Assembly (NCBI GenBank): GCA_964550035.1
Contig: CAZJVU010000003.1
Span: 65,383 to 129,382, forward strand
Source: an uncultured Candidatus Saccharibacteria bacterium
Lineage (GTDB): Bacteria > Patescibacteriota > Saccharimonadia > Saccharimonadales > EFPC-124
Reading direction: 5' to 3'
Length of the DNA: 64,000 nt
Shown here: in pieces, positions 4,972 through 60,801 of the stretch
Position numbering within the stretch: position 1 is the first letter of the stretch
Layout: the number at the start of each line of letters is the position of its first letter
The notes under the pieces: generated by a model
What the model was told of the DNA's origin: nothing
The model's input: only the letters and a program-made list of their open reading frames with translations
Databases searched by the model: none
Made by a program: the position numbers and the translations under genes

Positions 4972-6017
4972 AGCTCTTCTTTCTCCTCCTCTGGCTTCGA
5001 AGCCAGAGGAACGCGAACCGTGAAGGTCGAACCTTTGTCGACTTTACTTGTCACTTCGATGGCGCCTTTGTGGAGGTCAACGATCTTCTTGGCGATGGAC
5101 AGGCCGAGACCGTAGCCATGAACTTTTGTACCTTTGGTGCGGGAGCTGTCCGCGCGGTAGAGACGGTCGAAGATGTGTGGCAAATCGTCTGGCTTGATAC
5201 CGCAGCCTTGGTCGGCCACGGCGATGTAGGCGTTGCCACCTTTGACGCTGGAACTCAGGGTGATCTGCGACTTTTCGGGACTATACTTGATGGCGTTATC
5301 GAGCAGAATCGCAAAGAGTTGGACAAGCCCGTCTTTACTGCCTAGCACAGCCAGTCCTTCAGTCTGGTCGTCGATGGCGATCTTGTGCTGTTTGGCAACT
5401 TTGTCGGTACGCTCTATGGCGCCCTTCAAAACTTGCTTTGTTTCTACGCGATGCGGCTCAAAGGTGTCTTTGTCTTGATTGGCGAGCATGAGGAGGCCAT
5501 TGCTGAGCTCCTGGAGTTTGTTGACCTCCTCGAGGTTGCTTTCCAGGAGTTCACGCGCCTCAGCAATTGATAAGTTCTTATCACGCAGTGAGACTTCGAT
5601 CTCGGTTTGCATTGCCGTCAGCGGCGTCCGGAGCTCGTGCGAGGCATCACCCGTGAACCGCGCTTGCGCCTCCATGGCTTGTTCCAGCGGGCGCAGTGTG
5701 CGGCGCGCCATATAGAAACTCGCCAGGCCGCCCACTACCAATACACCGACATTCGCAAGCGTCAGGTTCGCGATCAGCCGCTGCTGACCCGAGCTAATCT
5801 CGCGGTCACGCAACCGGTCGAGGTCCAGTGGCGAAGGCGTAAAGCCAAACGAATTATAGTATTGCTGGCGAATCGCTGAGCGCTGGTGGTCATAGGCTGC
5901 GTCCAGTGTCTCAGCCGATGAATTGTACAGCACAAAGCTAAACGCCAAGCTCAGCCCCATCACCAGCGCCAAGTACCACGCCGTCAATTTAATTGTTGCA
6001 GACTGAAACATTCTCAC
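4968..6017 (-). CDS. Sensor histidine kinase
   Basis: H-box SHELRTPLTAM; N/G boxes DQGCGI...GYGLGLSIAKKIV; two N-terminal TM segments; 4-nt overlap with the response regulator. Confidence 0.92.
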   Translation of the reverse strand: MRMFQSATIKLTAWYLALVMGLSLAFSFVLYNSSAETLDAAYDHQRSAIRQQYYNSFGFTPSPLDLDRLRDREISSGQQRLIANLTLANVGVLVVGGLASFYMARRTLRPLEQAMEAQARFTGDASHELRTPLTAMQTEIEVSLRDKNLSIAEARELLESNLEEVNKLQELSNGLLMLANQDKDTFEPHRVETKQVLKGAIERTDKVAKQHKIAIDDQTEGLAVLGSKDGLVQLFAILLDNAIKYSPEKSQITLSSSVKGGNAYIAVADQGCGIKPDDLPHIFDRLYRADSSRTKGTKVHGYGLGLSIAKKIVDLHKGAIEVTSKVDKGSTFTVRVPLASKPEEEKEEL

Positions 6018-7974: not shown

Positions 7975-8877
7975 TCAGATCTCGAGGAGCTGCTGGAACT
8001 CATGCGGGTCTCCATAGTGATAGATGAGCTTATCGAGCAAATGCGCAATCGGGTATTCTTCGAGCCGCACCACATGAGGCAGCTCCTGCAAGGTAAAAAG
8101 TCCTTCACTCTGGACGTTTGTATCTGCGATTCGCTCCACGATGCTTCGACCCACGCGGTAGTTAAACGAGTTATCGCCAGTCCCAGCCGCCACAAGGTCG
8201 CCCAAACCGGCGAGGCTCTCAGCAGTTTCCGGCGTAACATTCAGATCGTGCAGAATGCGCTTCATCTCACGCAGAATCATAACGACCAAGCGTCCGCGCG
8301 CGTTGGCGCCGAGCTTGAGTCCATCGCACATGCCAAACGCAATGGCGTAGACATTCTTCAACACGCCACTCACGGCAGTGGCATGCATGTCACTGGAGAT
8401 TTCTAAGAAGACGCGCGCCTTGGCAAAGATGTCGCGAACCGTATTGTCGTAGTCTACTTCCGACAGAGCCAAAATCCCCGAACCCATCTGATGCGCAATG
8501 AGCTCACTTGCGGTCATAGGACCATAGATAAGCCCGTACGGCACACCATGTGGGAGCGTCTCGGCCAGGACGTGGTCGATAGTGACGAAACCTTTCTCAA
8601 CACCCTTGCTGAATGAGATCACCAGCGGTGGGTTCTGCGGGTCGAGGTGTTTCGCTATCTCTTTGGCAACCTCGCGATTGGCCCAGGATGGCACGCAGAT
8701 GAGAAGCACACTGCATGCGACGACAACGTCACGAATGCTCGCGGTCGTCGTGCGGCTGTCCTCGCGGTCGTAATACAGCACCTGCGAGCCAGCCTTCTCG
8801 AGCACGTGGCCAAGCGCCTGACCAAGCTCACCCGCACCAATAATGCCGATCTGGTCTGTTTTGGCTGCGTTCTCCAT
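7975..8877 (-). CDS. gpsA: NAD(P)H-dependent glycerol-3-phosphate dehydrogenase-like
   Basis: IGIIGAGELG Rossmann start, AGLGDLV...G.NSFNYRVG motif; ATG 8877 lies 2 nt after the ndh stop; the longer ORF to 8985 overlaps ndh. Confidence 0.75.
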   Translation of the reverse strand: MENAAKTDQIGIIGAGELGQALGHVLEKAGSQVLYYDREDSRTTTASIRDVVVACSVLLICVPSWANREVAKEIAKHLDPQNPPLVISFSKGVEKGFVTIDHVLAETLPHGVPYGLIYGPMTASELIAHQMGSGILALSEVDYDNTVRDIFAKARVFLEISSDMHATAVSGVLKNVYAIAFGMCDGLKLGANARGRLVVMILREMKRILHDLNVTPETAESLAGLGDLVAAGTGDNSFNYRVGRSIVERIADTNVQSEGLFTLQELPHVVRLEEYPIAHLLDKLIYHYGDPHEFQQLLEI

Positions 8878-27533: not shown

Positions 27534-27608
27534 TGGCGAGTGGCCAAATGGTAAGGCACTAGTTTCTGGCACTAGGGATTGAAGGTTCGAGTCCTTCCTC
27601 GCCAGCCA
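27534..27608 (+). tRNA. tRNA-Gln (anticodon CTG)
   Basis: Manual cloverleaf: acceptor tggcgag/ctcgcca, D arm gcc/ggc, anticodon stem ctagt/actag with loop ttCTGgc, T arm gaagg-ttcgagt-ccttc, encoded CCA; TATAAT at ~27515. Confidence 0.9.
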
Positions 27609-27715
27609 TGAAATTATTCAGATCAAAAGAGTTCCAAATTCTGGAGCACTTTTGCTCCCCACCACACCCAGCGGCAGGAGCAAATAATCGCAAAATATGG
27701 TATTATAACCATACT

Positions 27716-28960
27716 ATGCGAATACGAACTATTATTCTTAGCCTACTAACTATCACGACACTTGTAGTGGGCACTATCGCACCAAGCGTATCTGCCCAAA
27801 CCGATACATGGGGAGATTATTCTCAGATGTTCAAACAGAGCGCCGGACAATTCTTTAGCGGTGCCGACTACGGTGGCCAATGGGGCTGGACGCCTCAAAG
27901 CAGTACTACCAGCGACATCTCATGGTCGCCAAATTATGCCGAGCGTTTTATCAAGTCTGACAATTGGGTACTGCTTGATGGCTACAACAATGGGCCGGGC
28001 ACCGCAATCACGCAAGTTCAACGAGTAACTTCTGAGCAAATGGGCGACGCCAACTGTAATGGTATGACCGACCTGCCTTCTGCAAATGGCATGCAGCATT
28101 ACGCGCAGTGGAACATTCCGGCCTCGGGTTACTGCCTGGATGCAACCGGTACAATTACCTCGCCTACCAACGGTACGACCGTGAACTTCCGCCACCGTCA
28201 GCAGTGGAGCCCGCCTGCGGCATGTTCAAACGCGACCTTTACAGGCAAGACATGCATCAGTCAGCACGAACAGTGGTGGGACGACAATGGCCACCCATAC
28301 GGTTTGCAGCTAGATCGTTCAGGTTCACTCGCGAAGGGTCTTGGCATGGCCTTTACGATCCAGCAGACATACCCAAGTGCCTGGAATGCTGAGGGCAAGT
28401 TCTATAATCTGTCACTGGACGGAACGACAGCCTGGAGTCCCAGCACGGGGGCTCACCAAATCTATGGCGAAATTGCTAAAAAATGGAAAGCAATGGGAGC
28501 ATTTAATGGCCCCCAAGGCTACCCTACTTCCGATGAAAGCAGTACGCCTAATGGCTCAGCTCGATACAACAACATGCAGAACGGTGGCATTTACTGGTCA
28601 ACCTCTACCGGAGCGCAGGCAGTTTATGGCGCCATCTACCAGAAGTGGGGCCAATACGGTTATGAAACAGGTATTTTAAAACTCCCGACCACAAGTGAAG
28701 CCTCGACTCCAGACGGCGTCGGCCGCTACAATCATTTTCAAGGCGAGAATGGCTCTATATACTGGACCCCTTCTACCGGGGCACACGTGATACAGGGGAT
28801 GATCAAGTCGCGTTGGGCTGCACTCGGCTGGGAGCGTTCCTACCTGGGTTACCCCACGAGCGATGAGTTTGCAATTTCTGGCGGCCGCCAATCAAACTTC
28901 CAGAACGGCTATATCACATACAATGCTGCGACAGGAAAAGTCACTGACTACCACAAATAG
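27716..28960 (+). CDS. Secreted protein with C-terminal LGFP repeats
   Basis: Signal peptide (MRIRTIILSLL...SVSAQ); 3-4 tandem LGFP-type repeats (G.LGYPTSDE...G.YW/ITY...TG); the extension to 27608 overlaps the tRNA. Confidence 0.8.
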   Translation: MRIRTIILSLLTITTLVVGTIAPSVSAQTDTWGDYSQMFKQSAGQFFSGADYGGQWGWTPQSSTTSDISWSPNYAERFIKSDNWVLLDGYNNGPGTAITQVQRVTSEQMGDANCNGMTDLPSANGMQHYAQWNIPASGYCLDATGTITSPTNGTTVNFRHRQQWSPPAACSNATFTGKTCISQHEQWWDDNGHPYGLQLDRSGSLAKGLGMAFTIQQTYPSAWNAEGKFYNLSLDGTTAWSPSTGAHQIYGEIAKKWKAMGAFNGPQGYPTSDESSTPNGSARYNNMQNGGIYWSTSTGAQAVYGAIYQKWGQYGYETGILKLPTTSEASTPDGVGRYNHFQGENGSIYWTPSTGAHVIQGMIKSRWAALGWERSYLGYPTSDEFAISGGRQSNFQNGYITYNAATGKVTDYHK

Positions 28961-32558: not shown

Positions 32559-32900
32559 TCATGCGAACTTCCGCAGGGCTTTGGCCATCTCTTTGTCCAT
32601 CGTGGACTCCGAGTTGGTCAGCTTCTCGATGAGAGCCGCCCAGGCCAAGGGGTCGCGGGTGGAACCCAGAGTGGCGTGGCGAAGCGCCATCTCCATGTCG
32701 GCGGCGGAAGCGCTTCTGGTGCGGCTAGAGAGCGCCTTAGCGAAGGCCTCGAACTGGGCCTTGCAGGCGAGAAGTTCTCCCCCGACCTCGAAGTCGAGAT
32801 TGATGTCCTCGCACCGCTGGCACAGCTCCTTCAGCTGCAGCATGCCCGCCGAAGCCTTCAGGCCGCGGGCGAAGAGGCTGAGCAGAGTGACGTCGGTCAT
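32559..32900 (-). CDS. Hypothetical helical protein (GC-rich orphan)
   Basis: 113 aa; own TTGACT-17-TATAAT promoter; AAAGG SD. Confidence 0.55.
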   Translation of the reverse strand: MTDVTLLSLFARGLKASAGMLQLKELCQRCEDINLDFEVGGELLACKAQFEAFAKALSSRTRSASAADMEMALRHATLGSTRDPLAWAALIEKLTNSESTMDKEMAKALRKFA

Positions 32901-33143: not shown

Positions 33144-33800
33144 CTACCGCGTCAAACCTAGCGTCAGGCCATCTACAGCTCGAAGAACCTCATCTGTACT
33201 CACGCGTGCGTGGTTGAGCCCATCACCGGAATAGTAACTCTCGTGCGGATTATCACCGGTCATACGGGGGAGAGCCGCCCACTCCTGAGCAAGATTGGCC
33301 GCGAACTCCTCACGAGTGATCTTGCGCTGCACAAACGCATGCGAACCGCGCCGGTCGATGAGTGCGCGAGCCAAGCGGTCTTGCAGCGCGGGGTCAAATG
33401 TCGCGTGTGGGCTGATGCTTAGCTGCTTTACGAGCCCCGCAAGCGTCGTGCCCATGAACTGATATCGTCCGACTGCGTTGCTCGCATTTCCCTGGCGGAT
33501 ATACTCTTGCTGCCACTGCATAACCTCCGCAACAGTCATGCGCGTAAACGGCACCTCTGAGCTAGCGGTGCGGCCAAAATATGCGTTGTAGTTGCCGCCG
33601 CTCTCGCCTTTGGCAATGGTATCGAGAAGCGGCTGGTAGGCGGATGCGTCAATCATTGGTCGTGTTCCTTGTAGTGTGATTATAAAGACAATACAGGCCG
33701 CGACGGTCAGCCCTAGAATGCGGCGTTTTCTGCGGGTGAGTTTCCGCCACACGCGCTTTGCTTTTTTGTAGAGTAGTCGTACACGCTTTTCCATAGCCAA
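33144..33800 (-). CDS. Membrane-anchored lambda-lysozyme-like (GH104-type) muramidase/lytic transglycosylase
   Basis: N-terminal Arg/Lys-rich segment plus TM; AKGESGGNYNA (catalytic Glu context) and VGRYQF motif as in phage lambda R. Confidence 0.7.
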   Translation of the reverse strand: MAMEKRVRLLYKKAKRVWRKLTRRKRRILGLTVAACIVFIITLQGTRPMIDASAYQPLLDTIAKGESGGNYNAYFGRTASSEVPFTRMTVAEVMQWQQEYIRQGNASNAVGRYQFMGTTLAGLVKQLSISPHATFDPALQDRLARALIDRRGSHAFVQRKITREEFAANLAQEWAALPRMTGDNPHESYYSGDGLNHARVSTDEVLRAVDGLTLGLTR

Positions 33801-33847
33801 CCACTAGCTTAGCAAGAAGTACGAGGTGTCGCCATGATGTTTATAAA

Positions 33848-33876
33848 TTGACATAATAATATTTTAATGCTACAGT
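33848..33876 (+). promoter_or_regulatory. Sigma70-type promoter for 33913-34164
   Basis: TTGACA-17 nt-TACAGT followed by ATATAT. Confidence 0.6.
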
Positions 33877-33912
33877 ATATATCAAGCTGAACTACTCACC
33901 GAGGAGAGCATC

Positions 33913-34164
33913 ATGAGCGGTTTCAAGGTGGTCAACACCACCCGCAAGGGCAACCTGGTCGCGCTCGAGCTCCGGCACGACGGCCAGATCCCGACGATCG
34001 TGCGGGAGCACCTGCGCGGGCACGACGACGTCCTGCGCGTGGTTCCGGGCAACAACCCCACCAAGCTCTTCGTCCTCACGGCCGTCTCCGGCCACGCGAG
34101 GAACAACGAGCAGCGAGCGGCGTTCGTCGACAGCCTCAGCCAGACGGCCAACGCCGCGGCGTAA
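33913..34164 (+). CDS. Hypothetical protein (GC-rich orphan)
   Basis: 83 aa; GAGGAGAG SD; imperfect long GC hairpin downstream. Confidence 0.5.
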   Translation: MSGFKVVNTTRKGNLVALELRHDGQIPTIVREHLRGHDDVLRVVPGNNPTKLFVLTAVSGHARNNEQRAAFVDSLSQTANAAA

Positions 34165-34280
34165 CAGCCTCGCGCCCCAGCACACGGAAAGCTCCGTGCC
34201 TGCGGGCGCGGGGCTTTTCTCATCTAGTATCCCAATGAAGCGTCCCGGCCAGTTACCCGGCCGGGGTCGCTCCTGTATGC

Positions 34281-34721
34281 TCAGTAGATGTACTTGAAGG
34301 TGATGGCTGGCGCCGTTCGGGATGCAACGCGGTTCCAGCCGCTCTGGCCATCCATCTCGGTGATGATCACGAGGGCGTAGTCGATAGTGACGTCTTCGAC
34401 GATGGCAACTTGACCGTTCGTACCGCGATCGGTCCAGGCGATAGCGCCCTTTCGAGGCGCATCGCCAACTGCGTAGCCGGATTGCTGAGCGCGGTCGTAC
34501 CAGTACCTGGCGTCGCCCCAATTGGGCGGCACCTTCCGGCGCGATGCGACGTAGTAGGTACCAGAGCCGTACTCGTAGCCGTTGGCAGCATCGGAGCCCA
34601 CCGTCGTCGTGGTCGATGGGGCATTTGTGGTTGGCTGTACCCCCGAAGGTTGCGCCGAACATGCGGGTACGACCAGAACAAGTGCGACCATGCACCGTAA
34701 GAACAAACGTTTCGCCCTCAT
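34281..34721 (-). CDS. Lipoprotein with CHAP-like domain lacking the catalytic Cys and His
   Basis: Lipobox LVVPAC|S. CHAP-like layout: YGSGTYYVASRR (expected GQCTWYV) ... P.KGAIAW...NGQVAIVEDV (expected GHVAIVE). Confidence 0.65.
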   Translation of the reverse strand: MRAKRLFLRCMVALVLVVPACSAQPSGVQPTTNAPSTTTTVGSDAANGYEYGSGTYYVASRRKVPPNWGDARYWYDRAQQSGYAVGDAPRKGAIAWTDRGTNGQVAIVEDVTIDYALVIITEMDGQSGWNRVASRTAPAITFKYIY

Positions 34722-34896
34722 TACACCATCCTCACGTAGCGGAAACAGGAGCGTCACTTATTATACCGCCCATCACAACAAGGCAGCTATCATAAGTCTA
34801 TGCGCAACGGCGCGCTTGCATGCGTCACCTCCTATAACAGTACATGCAAATAGGGGCCCGAAATTCGAGCCCCTATTTGCATTATCGTTTTACTTT

Positions 34897-35576: not shown

Positions 35577-35676
35577 TGCCTTCGTCACTTACTCGGCAGA
35601 ATTGTTGCATAAACGTTATAATATTTTATAATTATAGACAATCAGTTTGCCTGATTCCTCAACTTGGGAAGGTGAC

Positions 35677-36696
35677 ATGAAGCACCCGACGGTTTTGTTC
35701 TTGGACAACACGAGCGCTGACAACTTGGCGCTGGCGCTGGCGGCGACCCGGCCTTCGTCCTTGTTGGACGTGAAGGCTATTTTCGTCACGGGGCGTGCAG
35801 CGCACACCGACCCCAGTGCCTCGATCGAAGACCGAGAAGAAAACTTTTCCAACTACATCCACTTCCTCAACGCCGCGCGCATGCTGGAGTTCCTCCAGAG
35901 TGCCGGTCGCCCGGACATCCCCATCATCATGGGGCGGCGCGTGCAGCGAACCGGAATTCGTACCGTCATCCCCCACCACATCCACGCAGACGAGAAGATC
36001 TACGACCTGTGGGACTCCTGGGGCAAAGCCAGAATTCACGAGTTCGCTGACGGCGTCCAGTACCTTCGTCACCTCAAGGCGAAGAAGCTCCTCGCGCTCG
36101 TCGGCGGACCGCTCACCGAAGTGGCGTGGATCCTGCAGCACGCGCCCGACGTCGCAGCCAAGTTCGGCACGATGCTCATCCAGGGAGGCGACTTCGCCAC
36201 CGACGAGTCTAGCAACCTCATCGGCGGCAAGGGCAACTCGTTCAACATCGCGTGTGACCCGAAGGCGGCGAACGTCGCGCTGAAAATGCATCGTGGGAAA
36301 GCCATCTTCCTCCCGTCAAACATGACCAAGCAGCGCGAACTCGGCTTCGCCACGCCCGACGAGATCGCGGCGCTGGGGGTGTACCGCCGGCTCGTCGACG
36401 TCTACCGGGTGCACTACGAGCACTCCGCCAAGCGGCGGGGAACCTCGTTGTTCATCCACGACCTGGGGTTGGTCATGCTCGCCGAGCAGCTCATTCGACG
36501 CAAGCGAGGCTTCCCCTACCAGCTGGAGCCGATCATGGTCCTGGAGGTACCCTTCCAGGCGCCAAAACCCGGTCAGCCCGAACGTCGCGGCACGGTCGTG
36601 GTCAAGCCGGTGCGGGTCAGCACGAACCGTTTCAGGGTGGTGTGGCAAGACACAAGGGACTACCGCACCCGCGTGGCTGCGTATCTCCGAAGTTGA
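35677..36696 (+). CDS. Inosine-uridine nucleoside hydrolase-like protein with degenerate N-terminal Asp motif
   Basis: VLFLDNTSADNLALALA (versus DxDxxxDD), GGPLTEVAWILQHAPDV...MLIQGG, NFNIACDPKAANV, IHDLGLVM; SD GGGAAGGTGA before ATG 35677. Confidence 0.6.
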   Translation: MKHPTVLFLDNTSADNLALALAATRPSSLLDVKAIFVTGRAAHTDPSASIEDREENFSNYIHFLNAARMLEFLQSAGRPDIPIIMGRRVQRTGIRTVIPHHIHADEKIYDLWDSWGKARIHEFADGVQYLRHLKAKKLLALVGGPLTEVAWILQHAPDVAAKFGTMLIQGGDFATDESSNLIGGKGNSFNIACDPKAANVALKMHRGKAIFLPSNMTKQRELGFATPDEIAALGVYRRLVDVYRVHYEHSAKRRGTSLFIHDLGLVMLAEQLIRRKRGFPYQLEPIMVLEVPFQAPKPGQPERRGTVVVKPVRVSTNRFRVVWQDTRDYRTRVAAYLRS

Positions 36697-41070: not shown

Positions 41071-43674
41071 ATGCGAAGCTTATTTATTAACGTATCAAAG
41101 CGGGTCGGCCTTATTGCATTAGTGGCGTCACTGGTTGTTAACAGTGGCGCCACTTTTGTTTTTGCCGCTCCGTCGCCAGCGAATTTGGTCGCGCACTGGA
41201 GCTACGACCAATCGTCCGGCACAACGCTTACAGACGATAGCGGCAATGGCCACACCGGCACATTCAGCAGCACGCCAACGTGGACGGCAGGCAAACTGAA
41301 TAACTCGCTCAAGTTCGACGGCACCGACAATGTCGCCCTTGGCAATATCACCCAGATCAACAACGTCAGTAAAGTAACGCTCGCCACATGGATAAAGCGC
41401 ACAACGACAGGCGCAGATATTTTTATCGGCAAGCAAGCCTCCAACCAAGATCTCGGCATCGAAGCCTACAGTGATGGCAAAGTATACTTCGACATGAGTA
41501 AAGGCTCGAGCGCATCGGGCAGCGTGACCCTCAACGACACTGCTTGGCACCATGTTGCGATGGTGTTTGACGGCACACAGACTGGCAACGCCAACCGCCT
41601 AAAGGCCTACGTCGATGGCACCCAGAAGACACTCACATTCAGTGGCACTATTCCTACAACAACATCGAGCAACACGACGGCATTCAACGTGGGCAAGATG
41701 AGCGGCGAATACTCCAACGGCCAAGTGGACGACACGTGGCTGTACGCACGCACACTGAGCACCAGCGAAATCCAAGATCTAGCCCAAGTATCGGCACCAG
41801 CACCCGACACAACTGCGCCGTCTGTACCGAGTGGCCTCAGCGCGACGGCTGTTTCGCAAAGCCAAATCAACCTGGCTTGGACGGCAGCGACAGACAATGT
41901 CGGCGTGGCTGGCTACCGTGTCTACCGAAACGGCGCTACCATCGCTACCACAAGTAGCACCTCCTACCAGAATACTGGCTTGACCGCGAGCACGGCATAC
42001 ACCTACACAGTCCGCGCCTACGATGCTGCCGGCAACGAGAGCGCCGACAGTACAGCCGCCTCGGCCACGACACTCGACCCACCAGCGCCCGACACGATTA
42101 CCCCAACAGTGAGTCTTTCCGCTCCGACCGATGGCGCAACCGTGAGCGGTACGGCTACCATTGCCGCTTCCGCCAGCGATAATGTCGGTGTGGCTGGCGT
42201 CAAATTTTACGCCAATGGCACGCAGGTTGGCGGCGAATCAACGACCGCGCCGTACAGCACCTCCTGGAACACCGCCGGTGTCGCAAATGGTTCAGTTCAA
42301 CTGACCGCTGTTGCACGCGACGCAGCCGGCAACACCACAACGAGCGATCCAGTGACCGTAACGGTCAACAATGTTGCGCAGACGCACAAATACGTCAGCG
42401 CAATCTCTTCGAACGGCCGCTTCTTTATGGATCAGACTGGCCTCCCGATCTTGATCAAAGGCGACTCGCCATGGGCAATGTTCAGCGACGTATCGCCAAC
42501 CCAAATCGAAACCTGGGCCGCAAACCGCGAAAACCATGGTTTCAACGCCGCCATCGTTTCACTCGTGGGTAGCACAACAAATGGTGGTCCATCCAACTCC
42601 GGCGCAACATACGACGGCGTTCTTCCGTTCGTCGGCGGCAACATCACCAGCTGGAACGAAACCTACTGGTCGCGCATGGACAGCTACCTCACGACGCTCA
42701 AGAACCACGGCATCACCGCCTTCCTCTACCCAATGGACGGCTGGAACACGCTCTCGGGCGCTGCATTCTCCGGCAAATCAGCCGCCGACTGCTACACCTA
42801 CGGACGAATGGTTGCGACGCGCTACGCAAGCTACCCGAACATCGTCTGGATGGCTGGCGGTGACTACAACGGCTATAGCGGTACCGTCAACACACAGTTC
42901 CAGAACATGCTCTCGGGCATTCGCTCTACCGGTGACACACGAGTGTTCTCGACACAGCTCAACAATGAAACGCTCACAACTGACGTATCGACATTTGAGT
43001 CACTCGCAAACTGGAACTTTGCTTACACCTACACACCTACTTACCAGAAAGTCCTCCGTGGTTATGATCGCACACCAAGCACGCGTGACCCACGCCCTGT
43101 TGTGTTCGGTGAAGGCAACTACGAAGGCGAAGACAATTACGGTGGCCCAGCCACGACCAATGAAACGCTCCGCCGCCAGCAGCTCTGGTCACTCACAAGC
43201 GGTGCCGCCGGTGAGTTCACCGGTTCGCAAGACTGGCAATTCAACGCTGGCTGGGAATCTCGCCTCGACACCGCCTGGATCACGCAGGCACAAAAGATGC
43301 GCGACTTCTTCAGCGACCTCAACTGGAGTCAGCTGGTACCAGATGAAACCACACCACTTGTTACTGCCGGCCGTGGCACCAAGCTCACATCTGACACCAG
43401 CCTCGACGTCCTCCAAAACGACTACGTTACGGCCGCTCAGACACCAGACAAATCCCAGGCAGTTGTCTACGTCCCGACCAGCGGAAGCGGTGCCGGAACT
43501 GCGCGAACCATCACGCTCAACCTTGCCCAACTGCCAGCTGGCTACACCGCGACGTGGGTAGACCCGACCGACGCGTCGTCAACGCAGTCTGCGACTGTCG
43601 ATGCCTCTGGCAATGTCACAACCCCAGGCACACACAGTGATGGCACACGAGACTGGTTACTGGTTATCCGGTAG
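41071..43674 (+). CDS. Secreted multidomain glycoside hydrolase-like protein (LamG + FN3 + Ig-like + DUF4038/GH140-like + collagen-binding-like C-terminus)
   Basis: Signal peptide. LamG-type LVAHWSYDQSSGTTLTDDSGNGH. FN3 (LSATAVSQSQINLAWTAATDNVGVAGYRVYRNG). DUF4038-type FFMDQTGLPILIKGDSPWAMF. Confidence 0.8.
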   Translation: MRSLFINVSKRVGLIALVASLVVNSGATFVFAAPSPANLVAHWSYDQSSGTTLTDDSGNGHTGTFSSTPTWTAGKLNNSLKFDGTDNVALGNITQINNVSKVTLATWIKRTTTGADIFIGKQASNQDLGIEAYSDGKVYFDMSKGSSASGSVTLNDTAWHHVAMVFDGTQTGNANRLKAYVDGTQKTLTFSGTIPTTTSSNTTAFNVGKMSGEYSNGQVDDTWLYARTLSTSEIQDLAQVSAPAPDTTAPSVPSGLSATAVSQSQINLAWTAATDNVGVAGYRVYRNGATIATTSSTSYQNTGLTASTAYTYTVRAYDAAGNESADSTAASATTLDPPAPDTITPTVSLSAPTDGATVSGTATIAASASDNVGVAGVKFYANGTQVGGESTTAPYSTSWNTAGVANGSVQLTAVARDAAGNTTTSDPVTVTVNNVAQTHKYVSAISSNGRFFMDQTGLPILIKGDSPWAMFSDVSPTQIETWAANRENHGFNAAIVSLVGSTTNGGPSNSGATYDGVLPFVGGNITSWNETYWSRMDSYLTTLKNHGITAFLYPMDGWNTLSGAAFSGKSAADCYTYGRMVATRYASYPNIVWMAGGDYNGYSGTVNTQFQNMLSGIRSTGDTRVFSTQLNNETLTTDVSTFESLANWNFAYTYTPTYQKVLRGYDRTPSTRDPRPVVFGEGNYEGEDNYGGPATTNETLRRQQLWSLTSGAAGEFTGSQDWQFNAGWESRLDTAWITQAQKMRDFFSDLNWSQLVPDETTPLVTAGRGTKLTSDTSLDVLQNDYVTAAQTPDKSQAVVYVPTSGSGAGTARTITLNLAQLPAGYTATWVDPTDASSTQSATVDASGNVTTPGTHSDGTRDWLLVIR

Positions 43675-50218: not shown

Positions 50219-52549
50219 TTAACCAGCCGGTTGTCCTGTTCCTTCGCCGGTTGCCGACGGTGGAGCGACCGTACCGGTGATCGGCCCGCCCGATTGCTCG
50301 GGAGGAGGTGTGCTCCGCGTCGGCGGGGACGTCGTCGCGGTGTGCGACGGCTTGGGCTTCACAGCCTTCGTCGTCGTGGGCGTCGGCGTCTCCGTTTCGG
50401 GAGTCGTCTCCGGCGCTGGCGGCGGCTGCTCGGTGGTCTTCGGTGCCGGCGGTGGGTCTTGTTTCAGACCCACTTTCTTGCCCGAGTCCAGGTCTGCCTT
50501 CGGGAAACTGACCGAAGGCGTTCCTTTGAGCTTGGCTGCGAAGACCCCCTGGCAGACGCGACCCGTATCGGCACCCGAACCGCTGGGATTCTTGCCTTCC
50601 CAGACGGTACAGACGTATGCCGGCGCGTCCGGGACGTCCGGATTGACGGCGTTGAACGCTGTCATCCAAGTGTCGCCCTGCTGCGTCTTCTCGTCACCGT
50701 CGGTCGTACCCGTCTTGCCGGCCAGCTCATGCTCGGGGACCTGGTCGTGAACCGCGGTACCGTGCGTGAAGACACCAGTCATGGCCTGGGCGACGACACG
50801 CGCGGTGTCTTCGTCCATGGCGTCACTGGATTCGTCTTCGTGCTCGAAGACGCGGTCGCCATCCGACAGCGTGATCGCGTCGATGATGTGCGGCTTGTGG
50901 TACGTTCCGCCGTTGGCGATCGTGGCAGTCATCACCGCCAGCTTCAGCGGCGACAGTTCGACAGAACCACCGATGGCGAGTCGCGGCTCGACGCTGAGCT
51001 TGGCCGGCGCGTTCTTGCCCGGGACCGGACTGGAGTCGGCACCCGCCTTCTTCAGCAGACTGGCCACGCTCTTGGGTGTGACCGAGTAGCCGCTGATGTC
51101 GGCCAGCGACTTGCGATCATCGCAGTTCGCCATCTTGCCAGTTGCTGCCTCGACGTAGACAACGTTGTTGCTCGCCGCCAACGCATCGGCCAGGGTCATC
51201 TTGCACCCCGGCGCATCCGCTCTTGTGTGGTCCCAGATCGGCGGTCCGTCGATCTGGATGTACTTGGGAGCGGCGAACGTCGAGTTCGGCGAAACGCCCT
51301 TGCCGACCGCATCGGCCAGCACGAACGGTTTCATCGTCGAACCCGGCGGCCTGGAGGCGTACATGGCATAGTTGTTCGCGTCAGCACCGTAATTGATGCC
51401 ACCGCTCATGCCGAGCACGCCGCCGTCGCGGGGGTTGAGGATGACCGCGCCCGAAGGACGCCCACCGCGGATTTCTCTTTGGTGAGCCTTGACCAACGCG
51501 TCCTGCACACTGGGATCGATGGAGAGCTGAATCTTCAGCCCACCTCGCGCCAACATGCTGTCCACGGTGGTCGCACCCTGTTCGGCTGCGTCCGATTCCT
51601 TCAGCCCATCATTGTCGATGGCCAGCTGGGTCTGCCACGCGGCCATCCAGTCGCGGATGTAGTGCATCAGGTACGGATCGCCGTCGCCCTTCTGGGGCTG
51701 CTTGATGGTATCCGTCAGCTTGAGCGGCAGAAGCGCCTTGGCCCTGTTCACGACGTCTTCCGACACCATGTTCGGGACGCCCTCGAGATCGCGGTAGCCG
51801 TCGAGCACGTACTTCACGCGATCGTTCAGCGCGTCGGCATTGACCAGGTTGCTTGGCCGGCCCTCGTACTTCGAGAACGCGCCCGGTCGCTGAACCAACG
51901 CCGCCAGGAACGCCGCTCGGGCGACCTGTAACGGGTCGTTGATGTCAGTGAGTGTCGTCGCCGACACGCCGAACCACGTCTGCGCCGCGTCCTCGACGCC
52001 GTACGCACCCCGACCGTAGTAGTTGGAGTTGACGTACTTCGTCAAGATCTGGTCTTTGGAGAAATCCTTCTCCAACCGGTACGCGTAGATCCACTCGTTG
52101 ACCTTGCGGCTCGCGGTCTTCGACTGGGTCAAGTACGCGTTCTTGACGTACTGCTGGGAGATGGTGCTCCCACCAGACGCCCACGACCCGGTCCGAGCGT
52201 CCACCAGGACTGCTCGAGCCGTTCCCAGCAGCGAGACCGCTTCGTGGTCGTAGAAGCTACGATCCTCCGCGGCCATGTGCGCCTGCCGGATGAGCGGCGA
52301 GACCTGCTTGTCGTCGAGCTGTTTGCCGCTGGCGGTGCTGGGGATGTGCCCCAGCTCGGTCTTGCCATCTGCAGCAAGCACGACCGTCGGCTGACCGACG
52401 GTGTATGCCGGCAGTTCGGTGTGGTCCGCCTGGTACTTGACGTACACCAGGAATCCACCGGCGCAGAGCGCACCGATGAGGGCGAAAATCAGCCCCACCT
52501 TTATCACGCGGGCTCGGAAACTGGGTTTCCCTTTCCTTGCTTGCGCCAC
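50219..52549 (-). CDS. Class A penicillin-binding protein (transglycosylase/transpeptidase) with Pro-rich C-terminal tail
   Basis: GT51 motifs AAEDRSFYDHEA and GGSTISQQ. TPase motifs STMK, SNN, KTGT. GTG 52549 preceded by AAGGAG. C-terminal PPPAPKTTEQPPPAPETTPETETP. Confidence 0.9.
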   Translation of the reverse strand: MAQARKGKPSFRARVIKVGLIFALIGALCAGGFLVYVKYQADHTELPAYTVGQPTVVLAADGKTELGHIPSTASGKQLDDKQVSPLIRQAHMAAEDRSFYDHEAVSLLGTARAVLVDARTGSWASGGSTISQQYVKNAYLTQSKTASRKVNEWIYAYRLEKDFSKDQILTKYVNSNYYGRGAYGVEDAAQTWFGVSATTLTDINDPLQVARAAFLAALVQRPGAFSKYEGRPSNLVNADALNDRVKYVLDGYRDLEGVPNMVSEDVVNRAKALLPLKLTDTIKQPQKGDGDPYLMHYIRDWMAAWQTQLAIDNDGLKESDAAEQGATTVDSMLARGGLKIQLSIDPSVQDALVKAHQREIRGGRPSGAVILNPRDGGVLGMSGGINYGADANNYAMYASRPPGSTMKPFVLADAVGKGVSPNSTFAAPKYIQIDGPPIWDHTRADAPGCKMTLADALAASNNVVYVEAATGKMANCDDRKSLADISGYSVTPKSVASLLKKAGADSSPVPGKNAPAKLSVEPRLAIGGSVELSPLKLAVMTATIANGGTYHKPHIIDAITLSDGDRVFEHEDESSDAMDEDTARVVAQAMTGVFTHGTAVHDQVPEHELAGKTGTTDGDEKTQQGDTWMTAFNAVNPDVPDAPAYVCTVWEGKNPSGSGADTGRVCQGVFAAKLKGTPSVSFPKADLDSGKKVGLKQDPPPAPKTTEQPPPAPETTPETETPTPTTTKAVKPKPSHTATTSPPTRSTPPPEQSGGPITGTVAPPSATGEGTGQPAG

Positions 52550-52662
52550 CTCAATGCTCCTTAGGCACCTCGAAATGGACAATCATCTATGTTAAATGAC
52601 TCGTATGCGCTCGCTATACTATAACATATATTTAACAGATGTCACGATATATCGTACAATGC

Positions 52663-54752: not shown

Positions 54753-56774
54753 ATGGGCTTGCGGGAGTATTTCCGGAAACGCAGTTTTAGCGAGACGCCT
54801 GAGCCAGAGGGCAACAGGAAGCCGGCGCGAGGCCGCGCTACTCCTCGGGCACAAGACGGTCGTCGGAGCAACACGACCTCGCGCCGCCATACGTTAAAAT
54901 TCGTTGTTCAGGAGCACCACGCCACCGCGCTGCACTACGATTTCCGCCTCGAGATGGACGGCGTTCTCAAAAGCTGGGCCGCGCCGAAGGGTCCGAGCAT
55001 GAATCCGCACGATCACCACCTGGCCATCCAGACCGAAGATCACCCTTACGAGTATCGCAACTTCGAAGGCGTCATCCCCGAAGGGAACTACGGCGCGGGT
55101 AACGTCATCATCTGGGATGAAGGCACGTACGAACCACGTGACCCGCAGGGCGACGAGAAGTCACTCTTGCGCGACCTGAAGAAAGGTCACGTCACATTTG
55201 TAATGCATGGCAAGAAACTCCAGGGCGAGTTTGCGCTCATCCGTATGCCGAATGCCAAGGAAGACGACGCCTGGCTTCTCATAAAGAAAGGCGACGAATA
55301 CGCCAACAGCACCGACGTCACCAAAGAAGACGAGTCTGTTCGCTCGCACCGCCATGTCGACGACCTCGGTGCGCACGGTAAGTTGCCTGATCTCAGCGAG
55401 TTTCCCAAAGTCCGCCAGCCCTGGACGGTCACGCCCATGCTTTGCACGCTCGTGGATGAGCCGTTTGACCGCGACGGGTGGATTTTTGAGATCAAATGGG
55501 ATGGCTACCGCGCGATCGGCACCAAGCATGGCGCCGACACGCAGCTTTACTCGCGCAATCAACTCGACTTCCGCGAGAGGTTTCCGCCCGTCGTCGAGGC
55601 GCTGCGCGAGATCAAGCACGACGTGATCCTCGATGGCGAAGTTGTTGTCGTGGATGATGAAGGCCGCGCACATTTTGAATGGCTACAAGGCTGGAATAAG
55701 GTCCCGCACGGCACACTCCAATATCACATCTTTGATATCCTCTGGTGTGACGGTCACGATGTGCGCAACTTGCCGCTCGTACGTCGCAAGGCTTTGCTCA
55801 GTGCCATCCTCCCGAAGAGCTCGGTGCTGCGCTACAGCGACCACGTCACTGGCAAAGGGCTCAAACTCTTCCACGAAATGCAGCGCCGCGGGCTGGAGGG
55901 CATGGTCGCAAAGCGCGCTGACAGCACATATCGTGAGAATGTCCGCGGTGGCGACTGGCTGAAAGTAAAGACACACATGCGCCAAGAGGTTGTGATCGGC
56001 GGCTACACTGAGCCACGTGGTGGGCGTAAATATCTCGGCTCGCTGCTCGTGGGCACATACGAGAAAGGTGAGCTGATATACCGTGGTCACTCCGGCGGCG
56101 GCATTGGCGATGAGCAACGCAAACAATTACAGGCAAAGCTCGCGCGGCTGGAGCGCAAGACGTCGCCGTTCAGCACCGAGCCAAAGCCGAACGCGCCGGT
56201 TCACTGGGTGAAGCCTGAGCTGGTATGTGAGATGGAATTTAGTGAATGGACGAGTGAGGGATCTATGAGGCATCCAGAGTTTAAGGGTTTGCGACCGGAT
56301 AAGAAGCCGGAAGATGTACACCGCGAGAAGTCAAAGTCCGTCAGCCACGCTGAGCATAGTCAGACCCACGCCAGCCAGCGCTCGTCTATGTCCTCTTCCC
56401 GACGGTATCGAAGCCTGGCGGCGAGGAGCGATAGCTCCGAGACCCAAGCCGGAGGGAACGGGGACATAGACGAAAAGCTGGTCCACGCAGAATCCTCAGA
56501 CGCCTCTTCGCCCCATTCTCCACCCCTCCTAAGACAGTCGGGATCGAAGAAGGGGGCGAGCGGCGTCAGCAGGCCGAATCGAAAAGTAAGGGACAAAAAG
56601 AAGGGGCGGACCGACCAACAGGACCCCAGTCCTTTAGTCTCCCGTTCGAACCAACTCACCTCGACAAAGTCTTCTTCCCCAAACACAAATACACCAAAGG
56701 CGACCTCTTCGAATACTACACCGCCGCCGCCGAGTACATCCTCCCCTACCTCAAGGACCGCCCACTCTCCATGA
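54753..56774 (+). CDS. ligD: LigD, phosphoesterase plus ATP-dependent ligase domains. The 3' third reads through a repeat insertion and out of frame into the polymerase region
   Basis: PE: FVVQEHHATALHYDFRLE..LKSWAAPKGPS. Ligase: EIKWDGYRA (KxDG), ...HPEFKGLRPDK. After ~56360 the sequence is low-complexity. Confidence 0.85.
   Translation: MGLREYFRKRSFSETPEPEGNRKPARGRATPRAQDGRRSNTTSRRHTLKFVVQEHHATALHYDFRLEMDGVLKSWAAPKGPSMNPHDHHLAIQTEDHPYEYRNFEGVIPEGNYGAGNVIIWDEGTYEPRDPQGDEKSLLRDLKKGHVTFVMHGKKLQGEFALIRMPNAKEDDAWLLIKKGDEYANSTDVTKEDESVRSHRHVDDLGAHGKLPDLSEFPKVRQPWTVTPMLCTLVDEPFDRDGWIFEIKWDGYRAIGTKHGADTQLYSRNQLDFRERFPPVVEALREIKHDVILDGEVVVVDDEGRAHFEWLQGWNKVPHGTLQYHIFDILWCDGHDVRNLPLVRRKALLSAILPKSSVLRYSDHVTGKGLKLFHEMQRRGLEGMVAKRADSTYRENVRGGDWLKVKTHMRQEVVIGGYTEPRGGRKYLGSLLVGTYEKGELIYRGHSGGGIGDEQRKQLQAKLARLERKTSPFSTEPKPNAPVHWVKPELVCEMEFSEWTSEGSMRHPEFKGLRPDKKPEDVHREKSKSVSHAEHSQTHASQRSSMSSSRRYRSLAARSDSSETQAGGNGDIDEKLVHAESSDASSPHSPPLLRQSGSKKGASGVSRPNRKVRDKKKGRTDQQDPSPLVSRSNQLTSTKSSSPNTNTPKATSSNTTPPPPSTSSPTSRTAHSP
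56366..56575 (+). repeat. Palindromic repeat element, copy B (210 nt, in frame within ligD)
   Basis: Aligns to the reverse complement of 732-985 with a ~45-nt deletion in one arm; 70 codons with no stop in the ligD frame. Confidence 0.8.
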
Positions 56775-58857: not shown

Positions 58858-60801
58858 ATGATGTTCGGACGACTTACTCTCGATGCAATCCCTAAAGAAC
58901 CGGTCACCCTCGGTGGTGTTGCAACGATGCTTTTGGGCGGCTTGGCCGTTGTGGCGCTCATCACGTACTTCAAAAAGTGGCGCTGGTTGTGGCAGAACTG
59001 GCTCACCTCGCTGGACCCAAAGAAAATTGGCGTGATGTATCTGGTCGTCGCGGGTATTATGCTGCTGCGTGGTCTTGGCGATGCACTGCTCATCCGTGTG
59101 CAGCAAGCGCTCGATGCCAATGCGCCGCTCAGCACCGACACGTTCCAGCAGATCTTTTCGGCGCACGGCACGATGATGATTTTCTTTGTGGCCATGGGCG
59201 TGATCTTTGGCATGATGAACCTCCTGATACCACTGATGATTGGCTCGCGCGATGTGGCGTTTCCGTTCCTGAACGCGGTGAGTTTCTGGCTGTTTGCCGC
59301 CGGCATGGTGCTGGTGAATGTGTCGTTGATGGTCGGTGAATTCCAGGCCGCTGGTTGGCTGGCTTATCCGCCGCTGAGCGAGCTCCAGTATAGCCCGGGT
59401 GTCGGCGTGGACTACTGGCTTTGGACGCTCCAGATTGCTGGCGCAGGAAGTTTGCTGAGTGGCATTAACTTTATGGTGACGATCATCAAAATGCGCGCGC
59501 CGGGTATGACGCTGATGAAGATGCCGCTTTTTGTATGGGCGTGCCTCGGCAGCTTGAGCCTTATCGTCGCTGCGTTCCCGATTCTCACCGCGACGCTGGC
59601 TATGTTGTCGCTGGACCGATTACTGGGCATGCATTTCTTTACGAGTAACGCCGGCGGCAACCCGATGATGTATATCAACCTCATCTGGGCATGGGGGCAT
59701 CCAGAAGTCTACATCCTCGTGCTACCGGCATTCGGCGTTTTCTCGGAAGTCGTAGCGACGTTCTCGCGTAAACCGCTCTTTGGCTACACCAGTATGGTGT
59801 GGGCGATTGTGGGTATTACCCTCCTGTCGTTTGTCGTATGGCTGCATCACTTCTTTACCATGGGCGCGGGTGCAGATGTGAATGCGTTCTTTGGCATCAT
59901 GACGATGATCATTGCTGTGCCGACGGGCGTGAAGGTCTTTAACTGGCTGTTCACGATGTACCGCGGCCGCGTCAGGTTCACCACACCGATGCTGTGGTTT
60001 ATGGGATTTGTTACGACATTTACGATCGGTGGCGCGACGGGCGTGTTGATGTCCGTGCCGGCGGTTGATTTCCAGATTCACAACAGTCTGTTCCTGGTTG
60101 CACACTTCCACAATATGATCATCGGTGGCGTTATCTTTGGCGCCATGGCTGGGCTGACGTATTGGTTCCCCAAGTTTACCGGTTTTCGCCTCAATGAATT
60201 CCTGGGCAAATGCGCGTTCTGGTGCTGGCTGGGCGGATTCCTTTTGGCCTTCGTACCGCTCTACATCCTCGGTCTGATGGGCGCGACTCGCCGCCTTGAC
60301 CATTACGACCCGTCGCTTGGCTGGCAATGGTTGTTCATAGTGGCTGGGTTCGGCGTGTTACTGATCTTGCTCGGCGTTGGTTTCCAGCTGCTGCAGATTG
60401 GCTACAGCATTTGGGACCACAAGAAGCACCCGAAGCCGGCAGAATCCGACCCATGGGATGGTCGCACGCTCGAATGGGCCGCATCTTCGCCGCCAAAGGA
60501 ATACAACTTTGCGGTTATTCCAACCGTCACCGAACGAGACGCCTTTTGGCATACAAAACAACGCGGTGTTGAGGTCCCCAAACACTACGAAGACATCGAA
60601 ATCCCCAAGAACACGCCACTCGGCATGTTCATTGCCGCCGGCGCGTTCCTGATTGGGTTCGGACTGGTGTGGCATATGTGGTGGTTGGCGATAGCTGGCT
60701 TTGTCGCAATTGTCGTGTTCATGCTTGTACGTTTTAGCGACGACAACACCGAACGGGTCATTACTGCCCGTGAAGTCGAGAAGATGGAGGCTGCGCTATG
60801 A
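58858..60801 (+). CDS. cyoB: Quinol oxidase subunit I (heme-copper oxidase)
   Basis: [25 protein letters not shown] motifs; 647 aa. Confidence 0.95.

Follow-up and report, generated by a model that had tools for sequence, protein, structure and literature searches.

What may a cell-wall peptidase domain do for a bacterium once the residues with which it would cut have been replaced? This question is raised by gene 34281-34721, on the minus strand of the 64-kb stretch of DNA analysed here (the window), where it occupies the interval 33144-34757 together with two other genes. An earlier note, made from the sequence alone, had described its product as a lipoprotein with a CHAP domain in which both catalytic residues are replaced, and had placed it next to a membrane-anchored lysozyme. 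Our analysis confirms the domain assignment and the replacements, and the reading that we favour, if with restrained confidence, is that of a non-catalytic, wall-binding lipoprotein which is tethered to the membrane, resembles RipD of Mycobacterium tuberculosis and is derived from LysM-CHAP autolysins. For brevity the gene and its relatives are referred to as dead CHAP. The parts of the gene are as follows (aa, amino acid residues; AF2, AlphaFold2; pLDDT, predicted local distance difference test):

34281-34721, minus strand: dead-CHAP lipoprotein gene (P0001), 146 aa, start codon ATG at 34721, matched by Pfam CHAP
34659-34721, minus strand: predicted signal peptide and lipobox (MRAKRLFLRCMVALVLVVPA/C21), with the Cys21 codon at 34661-34659
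34584-34658, minus strand: Ser/Thr/Pro-rich low-complexity linker of about 25 aa, variable in length and sequence among homologues, pLDDT <50
34284-34583, minus strand: CHAP-fold domain with Gly54, Gln104 and Glu122, based on alignments to 2k3a and 2lrj, a column census, AF2 and Foldseek
34562-34560, 34412-34410 and 34358-34356, minus strand: codons of Gly54 (GGT), Gln104 (CAA) and Glu122

The assignment to the CHAP family rests on a profile score above threshold and on a papain-like alpha+beta fold. The 146-aa protein matches Pfam CHAP (PF05257) at E 6.8e-10, its 39.7 bits exceeding the gathering score of 26, while a phmmer search of PDB sequences returned 2k3a and 2lrj, both of them CHAP domains, at E values of about 4e-11. 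In the AF2 model, computed from a 158-aa input, residues 1-56 are disordered and the domain (about residues 60-158) reaches pLDDT values of 86-98. Top Foldseek matches of this model are all CHAP structures at a probability of 1.0, namely 2k3a, 2lrj, 5t1q, 9eum and PcsB (4cgk), with a target TM-score (TMt) of 0.72 for 2lrj and a root-mean-square deviation of 2.4 Å for 5t1q and 9eum.

Alignment to 2k3a and 2lrj places 'YGSGTYYV' opposite 'AGQCTWYV', so that the Cys is replaced by Gly54, and 'TNGQVAIVE' opposite 'GYGHVAYVE', so that the His is replaced by Gln104. The third residue of the triad is retained as Glu122 ('SEMN' vs 'TEMD', the family having 'SEMN'). Judged as a CHAP enzyme, the protein is thus without the nucleophilic Cys at the N-terminus of helix 1 and without the general-base His, the third polar residue being present, and from its sequence the domain is predicted to be unable to act as a cysteine peptidase. 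The earlier note had made the same prediction, which is strengthened here because both replacements are conserved across the clade while the remainder of the CHAP signature is kept.

A word-indexed homologue search delimited a family of 23 clusters. Its 22 homologues stem from independent metagenomes and metagenome-assembled genomes (MAGs), are 48-66% identical to the window protein and measure 140-156 aa (one is truncated). The His column holds Gln in all 22 and the Cys column Gly in 21, the remaining one having Ser; the blocks 'GTYYV' and 'GQVAIVE' are conserved among them, the latter invariantly. When 1.84 billion representatives were searched exhaustively with a profile, 4332 of them matched; of the best 150, for which the columns were tabulated, 144 have the canonical residues (C/H with E or D), which corresponds to 144 of 148 when family representatives are left out. 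When the 22 dead members were compared with these 144 active relatives (numbering over the last 130 residues), nearly all other CHAP signature residues proved to be kept: 25 signature positions are common to both groups, including Y41, V42, W52, G53, A55, W58, P73, G87, V89, V92, E93, S105, E106 and M107. Within the tabulated stretch only the change from His to Gln leads from one conserved state to another; the Cys column, located just before this stretch, gives the same contrast between dead and active proteins in the column census. Beyond this the dead clade displays a few clade-specific changes and two short insertions.

These comparisons bear on two alternative accounts of the replacements. 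Nothing beyond the replacement itself speaks for a decaying gene, or for an error of sequencing or assembly confined to one genome. Against this account, the gene has an intact reading frame, the same state recurs in an otherwise conserved domain in 22 independently sampled homologues, and both codons vary synonymously between genomes (GGT/GGC and CAA/CAG); we consider it scarcely credible. Since the homologues carry the same replacements in an otherwise conserved domain, the dead state is conserved and does not reflect gene decay: the catalytic residues are replaced, and fold and groove are conserved under selection. The protein might, alternatively, still be an enzyme by another chemistry, using Glu122 with a water molecule or exerting a non-hydrolytic activity. 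Conservation of Glu122 and of the 'SEM(N/D)' motif would accord with this, as would the invariance of Gln104, which is not random. However, Gly is no nucleophile and the sole Cys of the mature protein is Cys21 of the lipobox, the one that would be lipidated; moreover, the combinations D/T/A or G/H in other members of the subfamily argue against one alternative catalytic set, and RipD, in which the replacements are similar, is inactive (PMC12067865). A different chemistry is for these reasons regarded as very improbable.

Named records of the dead-CHAP family belong to Candidatus Saccharibacteria/Saccharimonadales, apart from one Woesebacteria MAG and one MAG labelled 'Verrucomicrobiae'. They are labelled 'CHAP domain-containing protein' (NCBI) or 'surface antigen' (JGI), which gives no clue that the members cannot hydrolyse. 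In the dead-CHAP genes of loci L001, L003, L005, L008 and L011 the GC content at third codon positions (GC3) is 0.59-0.69, the loci as a whole having 43-49% GC; the regions around these genes are variable, with toxin-antitoxin, Replic_Relax or defence-like genes close by, which suggests that the gene moves between genomes.

The N-terminus of the window protein reads MRAKR-LFLRCMVALVLVV-PAC(21)S, that is, a basic n-region and a hydrophobic h-region followed by VPA/C21. Of the lipobox claimed by the earlier note, the Cys is found in the same place in about 18 of the 22 homologues, several of them with the canonical boxes LSAC, LAAC or LTGC, while the residue at -2 departs from the canonical pattern. 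Lipidation of the protein is considered probable on the strength of these sequence features. The start at ATG 34721 is preferred over GTG 34757, the start given by the open reading frame finder, because homologues begin at the equivalent Met and a Shine-Dalgarno sequence (GAGGA, 34733-34729) lies 7 nt 5' of the ATG; GTG 34757 is probably not the true start.

Concerning the origin of the family, its closest active relatives are P0147 and P0151, which are 54% identical to the window protein over the domain, share with it the C-terminal 'F.YIY' and are composed of a transmembrane (TM) segment, two LysM repeats and a CHAP domain. In a neighbour-joining tree with the catalytic columns masked (without support values), P0001-P0022 form one group beside the LysM-CHAP enzymes, and we conclude that the dead clade descends from TM-LysM-LysM-CHAP autolysins of the same bacteria. 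Domain and fold are common to the window protein, these autolysins and the staphylococcal 2k3a and 2lrj; the latter proteins and the autolysins retain Cys/His/Glu, whereas the window protein is without Cys and His, and where the autolysins have wall-binding LysM repeats and a TM anchor, it has a lipobox and a linker. Genomic setting also differs, P0147 lying in a core region near YceG/MltG and the dead clade in variable regions. The order at the P0147 locus is RuvX-YceG/MltG-[LysM-CHAP]-Obg, the enzyme being directly downstream of YceG/MltG (L016, 6709-9209; one locus), and YceG/MltG and LysM-CHAP may represent a conserved pair of a glycan cutter and a peptide cutter.

The change from TGC to GGY and that from CAC to CAR each represent a single-nucleotide step, and replacements of this kind are found elsewhere in the subfamily. 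P0146 (L017, 8001-8459) has the same G/Q pair and yet adjoins the active P0147 in the tree, which suggests that this pair arose there independently. In P0149 and P0179, which are G/H/E, only the Cys has been lost, and P0148, also a lipoprotein, is D/T/A. Inactivation in this CHAP subfamily thus looks recurrent or stepwise, on a tree that has no support values.

Taking these observations together, the explanation that we prefer is as follows. The ancestor was a housekeeping TM-LysM-LysM-CHAP autolysin of candidate phyla radiation (CPR) bacteria of the Saccharimonadales type; in the dead clade the LysM repeats disappeared along with both catalytic residues, and a lipoprotein signal and a flexible Ser/Thr/Pro linker were acquired. 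The CHAP domain, as the only folded part, would be held at the membrane by the lipid anchor, and its groove would dock on stem peptides in the cell's own peptidoglycan and leave them uncut, a step that is proposed because the rest of the substrate groove is as strongly conserved as in active enzymes. The outcome would be either a tether from membrane to wall or an occupant of sites that are otherwise open to CHAP hydrolases. Peptidoglycan is most likely what the domain binds, judging by its groove and by analogy with RipD.

A number of points weigh against this proposal. The Pro at -2 of this member's lipobox is non-canonical, and three to four homologues are without the lipobox Cys, so that lipidation is perhaps not universal. 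Ligand specificity is not derivable from sequence, and the ligand may be a protein instead of peptidoglycan. Furthermore, the clade is small (23 clusters), is located in variable regions and has a GC3 well above its surroundings, features more in line with an accessory function or a niche role than with a structural tether of the core.

Such a niche role is central to another explanation, according to which the protein would be an adhesin that binds the peptidoglycan of a host (Actinobacteria), or a decoy that shields the cell's own wall from its own host-directed CHAP lysins or from foreign ones, of phages or competitors. Cultured Saccharibacteria live as epibionts on other bacteria (PMC8080830), and this lifestyle, together with the predominance of Saccharibacteria among the named family records, the accessory location with atypical GC3, and the independent recurrences of inactivation, which suggest repeated selection, would be in keeping with an adhesin or decoy. 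Conversely, a linker of about 25-30 residues on the cytoplasmic membrane would seem short for reaching past the cell's own wall, and the genomic context offers no link to attachment or secretion genes, a type IV secretion system (T4SS) cluster about 8 kb away being found in L008 only. We rate the adhesin or decoy as rather improbable. A broader idea, equally speculative, is that housekeeping LysM-CHAP autolysins of CPR epibionts are repeatedly converted by the same two single-nucleotide changes into lipid-anchored 'substrate traps' for stem peptides, or into wall or host adhesins. If this were true, the substrate traps would protect the cell's own wall from CHAP lysins, whether its own host-directed ones or those of phages and competitors, and dead enzymes would constitute a mobile, selectable module of envelope defence or attachment.

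The remaining alternative to the wall-binding lipoprotein concerns the genes beside it. The earlier note had pointed to a TM-anchored lambda-type lysozyme about 0.5 kb away on the same strand, with a small GC-rich orphan gene on the opposite strand between the two, and had implied that lysozyme and dead CHAP work together. The relevant features are:

34844-34882, between the RibD_C stop (34897) and the dead-CHAP gene: palindrome with 19-nt arms (ATGCAAATAGGGGCCCGAA / TTCGAGCCCCTATTTGCAT), found by repeat search
33913-34164, plus strand: small GC-rich gene, 83 aa, GC 0.68, GC3 0.95
33144-33800, minus strand: lambda-lysozyme-like gene, 218 aa from TTG 33800 or 216 aa from ATG 33794

According to this alternative the dead CHAP protein would be a regulator that activates, inhibits or recruits a partner hydrolase, either the adjacent lysozyme or a LysM-CHAP paralogue, in the manner of EnvC and NlpD. 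These two proteins are degenerate LytM factors that activate cognate amidases, NlpD being a lipoprotein, and the control of live hydrolases by dead hydrolase domains is an established theme. The proximity of the two genes on one strand would be compatible with such a role, as would the outer face of the membrane on which both products are expected; a recruitment idea has also been quoted for RipD (PMC12067865).

The arrangement of the locus argues otherwise. The near-perfect palindrome at 34844-34882, immediately downstream of the RibD_C gene, lies between an A-run and a T-run, and probably terminates transcription in both directions, setting the dead-CHAP gene apart as its own transcription unit. 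Beyond the palindrome, toward the dead-CHAP gene, a TATAAT was read by eye at 34765-34760 (minus strand), for which a promoter scan detected no -35 element above threshold. The small gene has a promoter-like TTGACA-17-TACAGT at 33848-33876, a GAGGAG Shine-Dalgarno sequence and a terminator (hairpin and T-run) at 34199-34212, and the lysozyme gene has its own divergent promoter-like site at 33885-33856. Since each is bounded by promoter-like sites or terminators of its own and by the palindrome, the three genes look like separate transcription units as far as their sequence can tell. An Rfam scan of the window returned only a distant tRNA match.

Gene neighbourhoods lead to the same view. Apart from the window, seven independent dead-CHAP contexts were available (L001/L010, L002-4, L005-7, L008, L011, L012 and L017), and tblastn searches of 15 loci with the lysozyme, the small gene and other neighbours detected no lysozyme or small-gene homologue within 6-10 kb of the dead CHAP in any of these seven, and no dead CHAP near the lysozyme in three lysozyme loci (L013-L015). 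All-against-all clustering of the neighbours within 6 kb in the eight dead-CHAP loci, window included, gave no recurrent family; sharing is sporadic, with RibD_C, MFS (major facilitator superfamily) and AraC genes common to two loci. In L015, the closest relative locus (lysozyme 86% and RibD_C 74% identical), the order is RibD_C, an unrelated 146-aa gene and a NUDIX gene, the divergent small-gene homologue and the lysozyme; two unrelated genes thus fill the place of the dead CHAP, which marks this slot as variable. The families also differ in size, the lysozyme counting at least 394 clusters against 23 for dead CHAP, that is, more than 15 times as many. The position of the dead CHAP beside the lysozyme consequently looks like an incidental placement in a variable genome region, and the implied functional pairing finds no backing in these contexts or in the transcription units. 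By gene neighbourhood, which serves here as a proxy that a partner acting in trans would escape, and which does not define the EnvC/NlpD family, a cognate hydrolase of the EnvC/NlpD kind is not indicated. A regulator of a partner hydrolase accordingly appears unlikely, albeit deserving of consideration, and the wall-binding lipoprotein continues to be our preferred explanation.

The small gene itself exists as the earlier note had described it, GC-rich and on the opposite strand, yet it is not strictly an orphan: two homologues were found, namely P0145 on L009, the only further cluster among 5.8 billion proteins, and a stretch of L015 matched by tblastn, while no family match was obtained. Their coordinates are 8001-8249 (plus strand) in L009 and 5304-5567 (minus strand) in L015. 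GC3 is 0.95 in the window, 0.92 in a locus of 52% GC and 0.76 in a locus of 47% GC, and the gene could have been acquired recently from a high-GC donor. It lies divergently upstream of the lysozyme in the window and in L015, not in L009. Genes of 83 aa near the dead CHAP in L002-4 and L008 were considered as candidate homologues and found to be unrelated. The small gene is not part of the dead-CHAP system.

The description of the lysozyme is borne out by several lines of evidence. Its N-terminus has a basic stretch and a hydrophobic anchor (I28-L43, 33672-33719), and the protein displays the invariant motif 'IAKGES.GNYNAY' as well as 'VGRYQ'. It matches the PHROG_90 endolysins with an E value of 3.4e-23, while Pfam gives a sub-threshold SLT match only. 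The AF2 model (pLDDT 93) is closest in Foldseek to the cyanophage baseplate lysozyme 8kea and to the lambda lysozyme 1am7, the latter with a probability of 1.0, TMt 0.62 and E 0.011, and hhalign against lambda R gives 88% and E 2.9e-6 over the C-lobe. Sequence-only searches against the PDB were weak (E 0.07-0.5), and the predicted structure was needed to confirm the lambda-type fold. The family, of which almost all members are about 210-220 aa, occurs in the same bacteria and conserves the basic stretch and hydrophobic anchor; among 28 sequences Glu66 (codon 33605-33603), G111, Y113, Q114, Q140-D141, W174 and P178 are invariant. Compared with lambda R (1am7), to which it is only 17-19% identical, the motifs GRYQ, QD..A and W..LP align, and in the region of the catalytic Glu 'LLDTIAKGES' can be aligned by eye with 'FLDMLAWSEG'. 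The protein thus has the lambda R fold and its motifs, the catalytic Glu included, the equivalence of Glu66 and lambda Glu19 being by eye only. Unlike lambda R, the protein has an N-terminal membrane anchor and belongs to a chromosomal family that is widespread in these bacteria. Gene 33144-33800 therefore encodes a membrane-anchored lambda-lysozyme-like protein, probably a lytic transglycosylase and perhaps a muramidase instead, to go by its sequence and modelled fold. The public gene call P0024 (170 aa) starts at Met49 and omits the anchor and basic stretch (33656-33800); the longer start, at ATG 33794 or TTG 33800, is more likely because the N-terminal anchor is conserved in the homologues of 210-220 aa.

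Two possible connections of the lysozyme were considered and rejected. A prophage origin is contradicted by the surroundings, which hold no phage genes (holin or structural) and are metabolic: its neighbours in the window comprise a cyclopropane fatty acid (CFA) synthase, RibD_C, a nucleoside-hydrolase-like gene, an MFS transporter and an AraC regulator, and the context in L013-L015 is similarly metabolic. A link to a T4SS was suggested by the label 'TraG' that JGI gives to many lysozyme homologues, and by a preprint reporting an essential pair of a peptidase and a lysozyme downstream of virB4 in Southlakia; no T4SS genes were found near the window genes or in L013-L015, and the T4SS cluster near the dead CHAP of L008 comprises TrbC/TrbL.

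As regards the wider window, GC3 is 0.56-0.61 in the RibD_C, CFA-synthase and lysozyme genes, and 0.80-0.84 in a gene for a 113-aa protein without assignment (32559-32900, minus strand), the nucleoside-hydrolase-like gene (35647-36696, plus strand) and a class A penicillin-binding protein gene (50219-52582, minus strand). Because GC3 is so heterogeneous among neighbouring genes, the window looks like a mosaic. It further encodes an LGFP-repeat protein (27608-28960), an 867-aa apiosidase-like/Laminin_G/fn3/Big_7 protein (41071-43674), a LigD-type ligase (54753-56774) and a cytochrome oxidase subunit I (58858-60801), a repertoire that is fairly rich for a CPR-type genome.

Dead wall hydrolases are already known as binding or regulatory modules in the NlpC/P60 (RipD) and LytM (EnvC, NlpD) families. 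For CHAP, a search of the literature found no stand-alone conserved dead family, nor any in Saccharibacteria, the sole case found being a phage lysin in which one internal domain is CHAP-like. The family described here is small and well delimited, has active relatives at 54% identity and differs from them at its catalytic positions by single-nucleotide changes, and it consequently offers a clean system in which to ask what a CHAP groove that does not cut recognises; with an intact groove, a G54C/Q104H back-mutation would be expected to bring activity back. It also opens a way into the envelope biology of Saccharibacteria, whose cell-wall handling is poorly understood.

In comparison with known systems, dead CHAP shares with EnvC and NlpD the retention of a dead wall-hydrolase domain under selection, and differs from them in fold, theirs being the unrelated M23 metallopeptidase fold, and in that no cognate partner is indicated. 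Domain D3 of ORF11, the tail lysin of Enterococcus phage SHEF14, is CHAP-like, is without Cys and His and has been proposed to engage stem peptides (10.64898/2026.03.11.711020); it is, however, a weakly CHAP-like internal domain of a multi-domain phage lysin, whereas dead CHAP is a family of stand-alone cellular lipoproteins. RipD (Rv1566c) of M. tuberculosis is an NlpC/P60 protein with Ala-Ser-Glu in place of Cys-His-Glu, which is inactive and binds peptidoglycan (PMC12067865). It differs from dead CHAP in its Pfam family and replacement residues, and in having a C-terminal pentapeptide-repeat tail and no lipid anchor. Both, nonetheless, are secreted or envelope proteins with a papain-like wall-peptidase domain in which Cys and His are replaced and Glu is kept, and in neither is the gene context conserved (for RipD, PMC12067865). 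Peptidoglycan binding, demonstrated for RipD, would by analogy extend to the dead CHAP lipoprotein.

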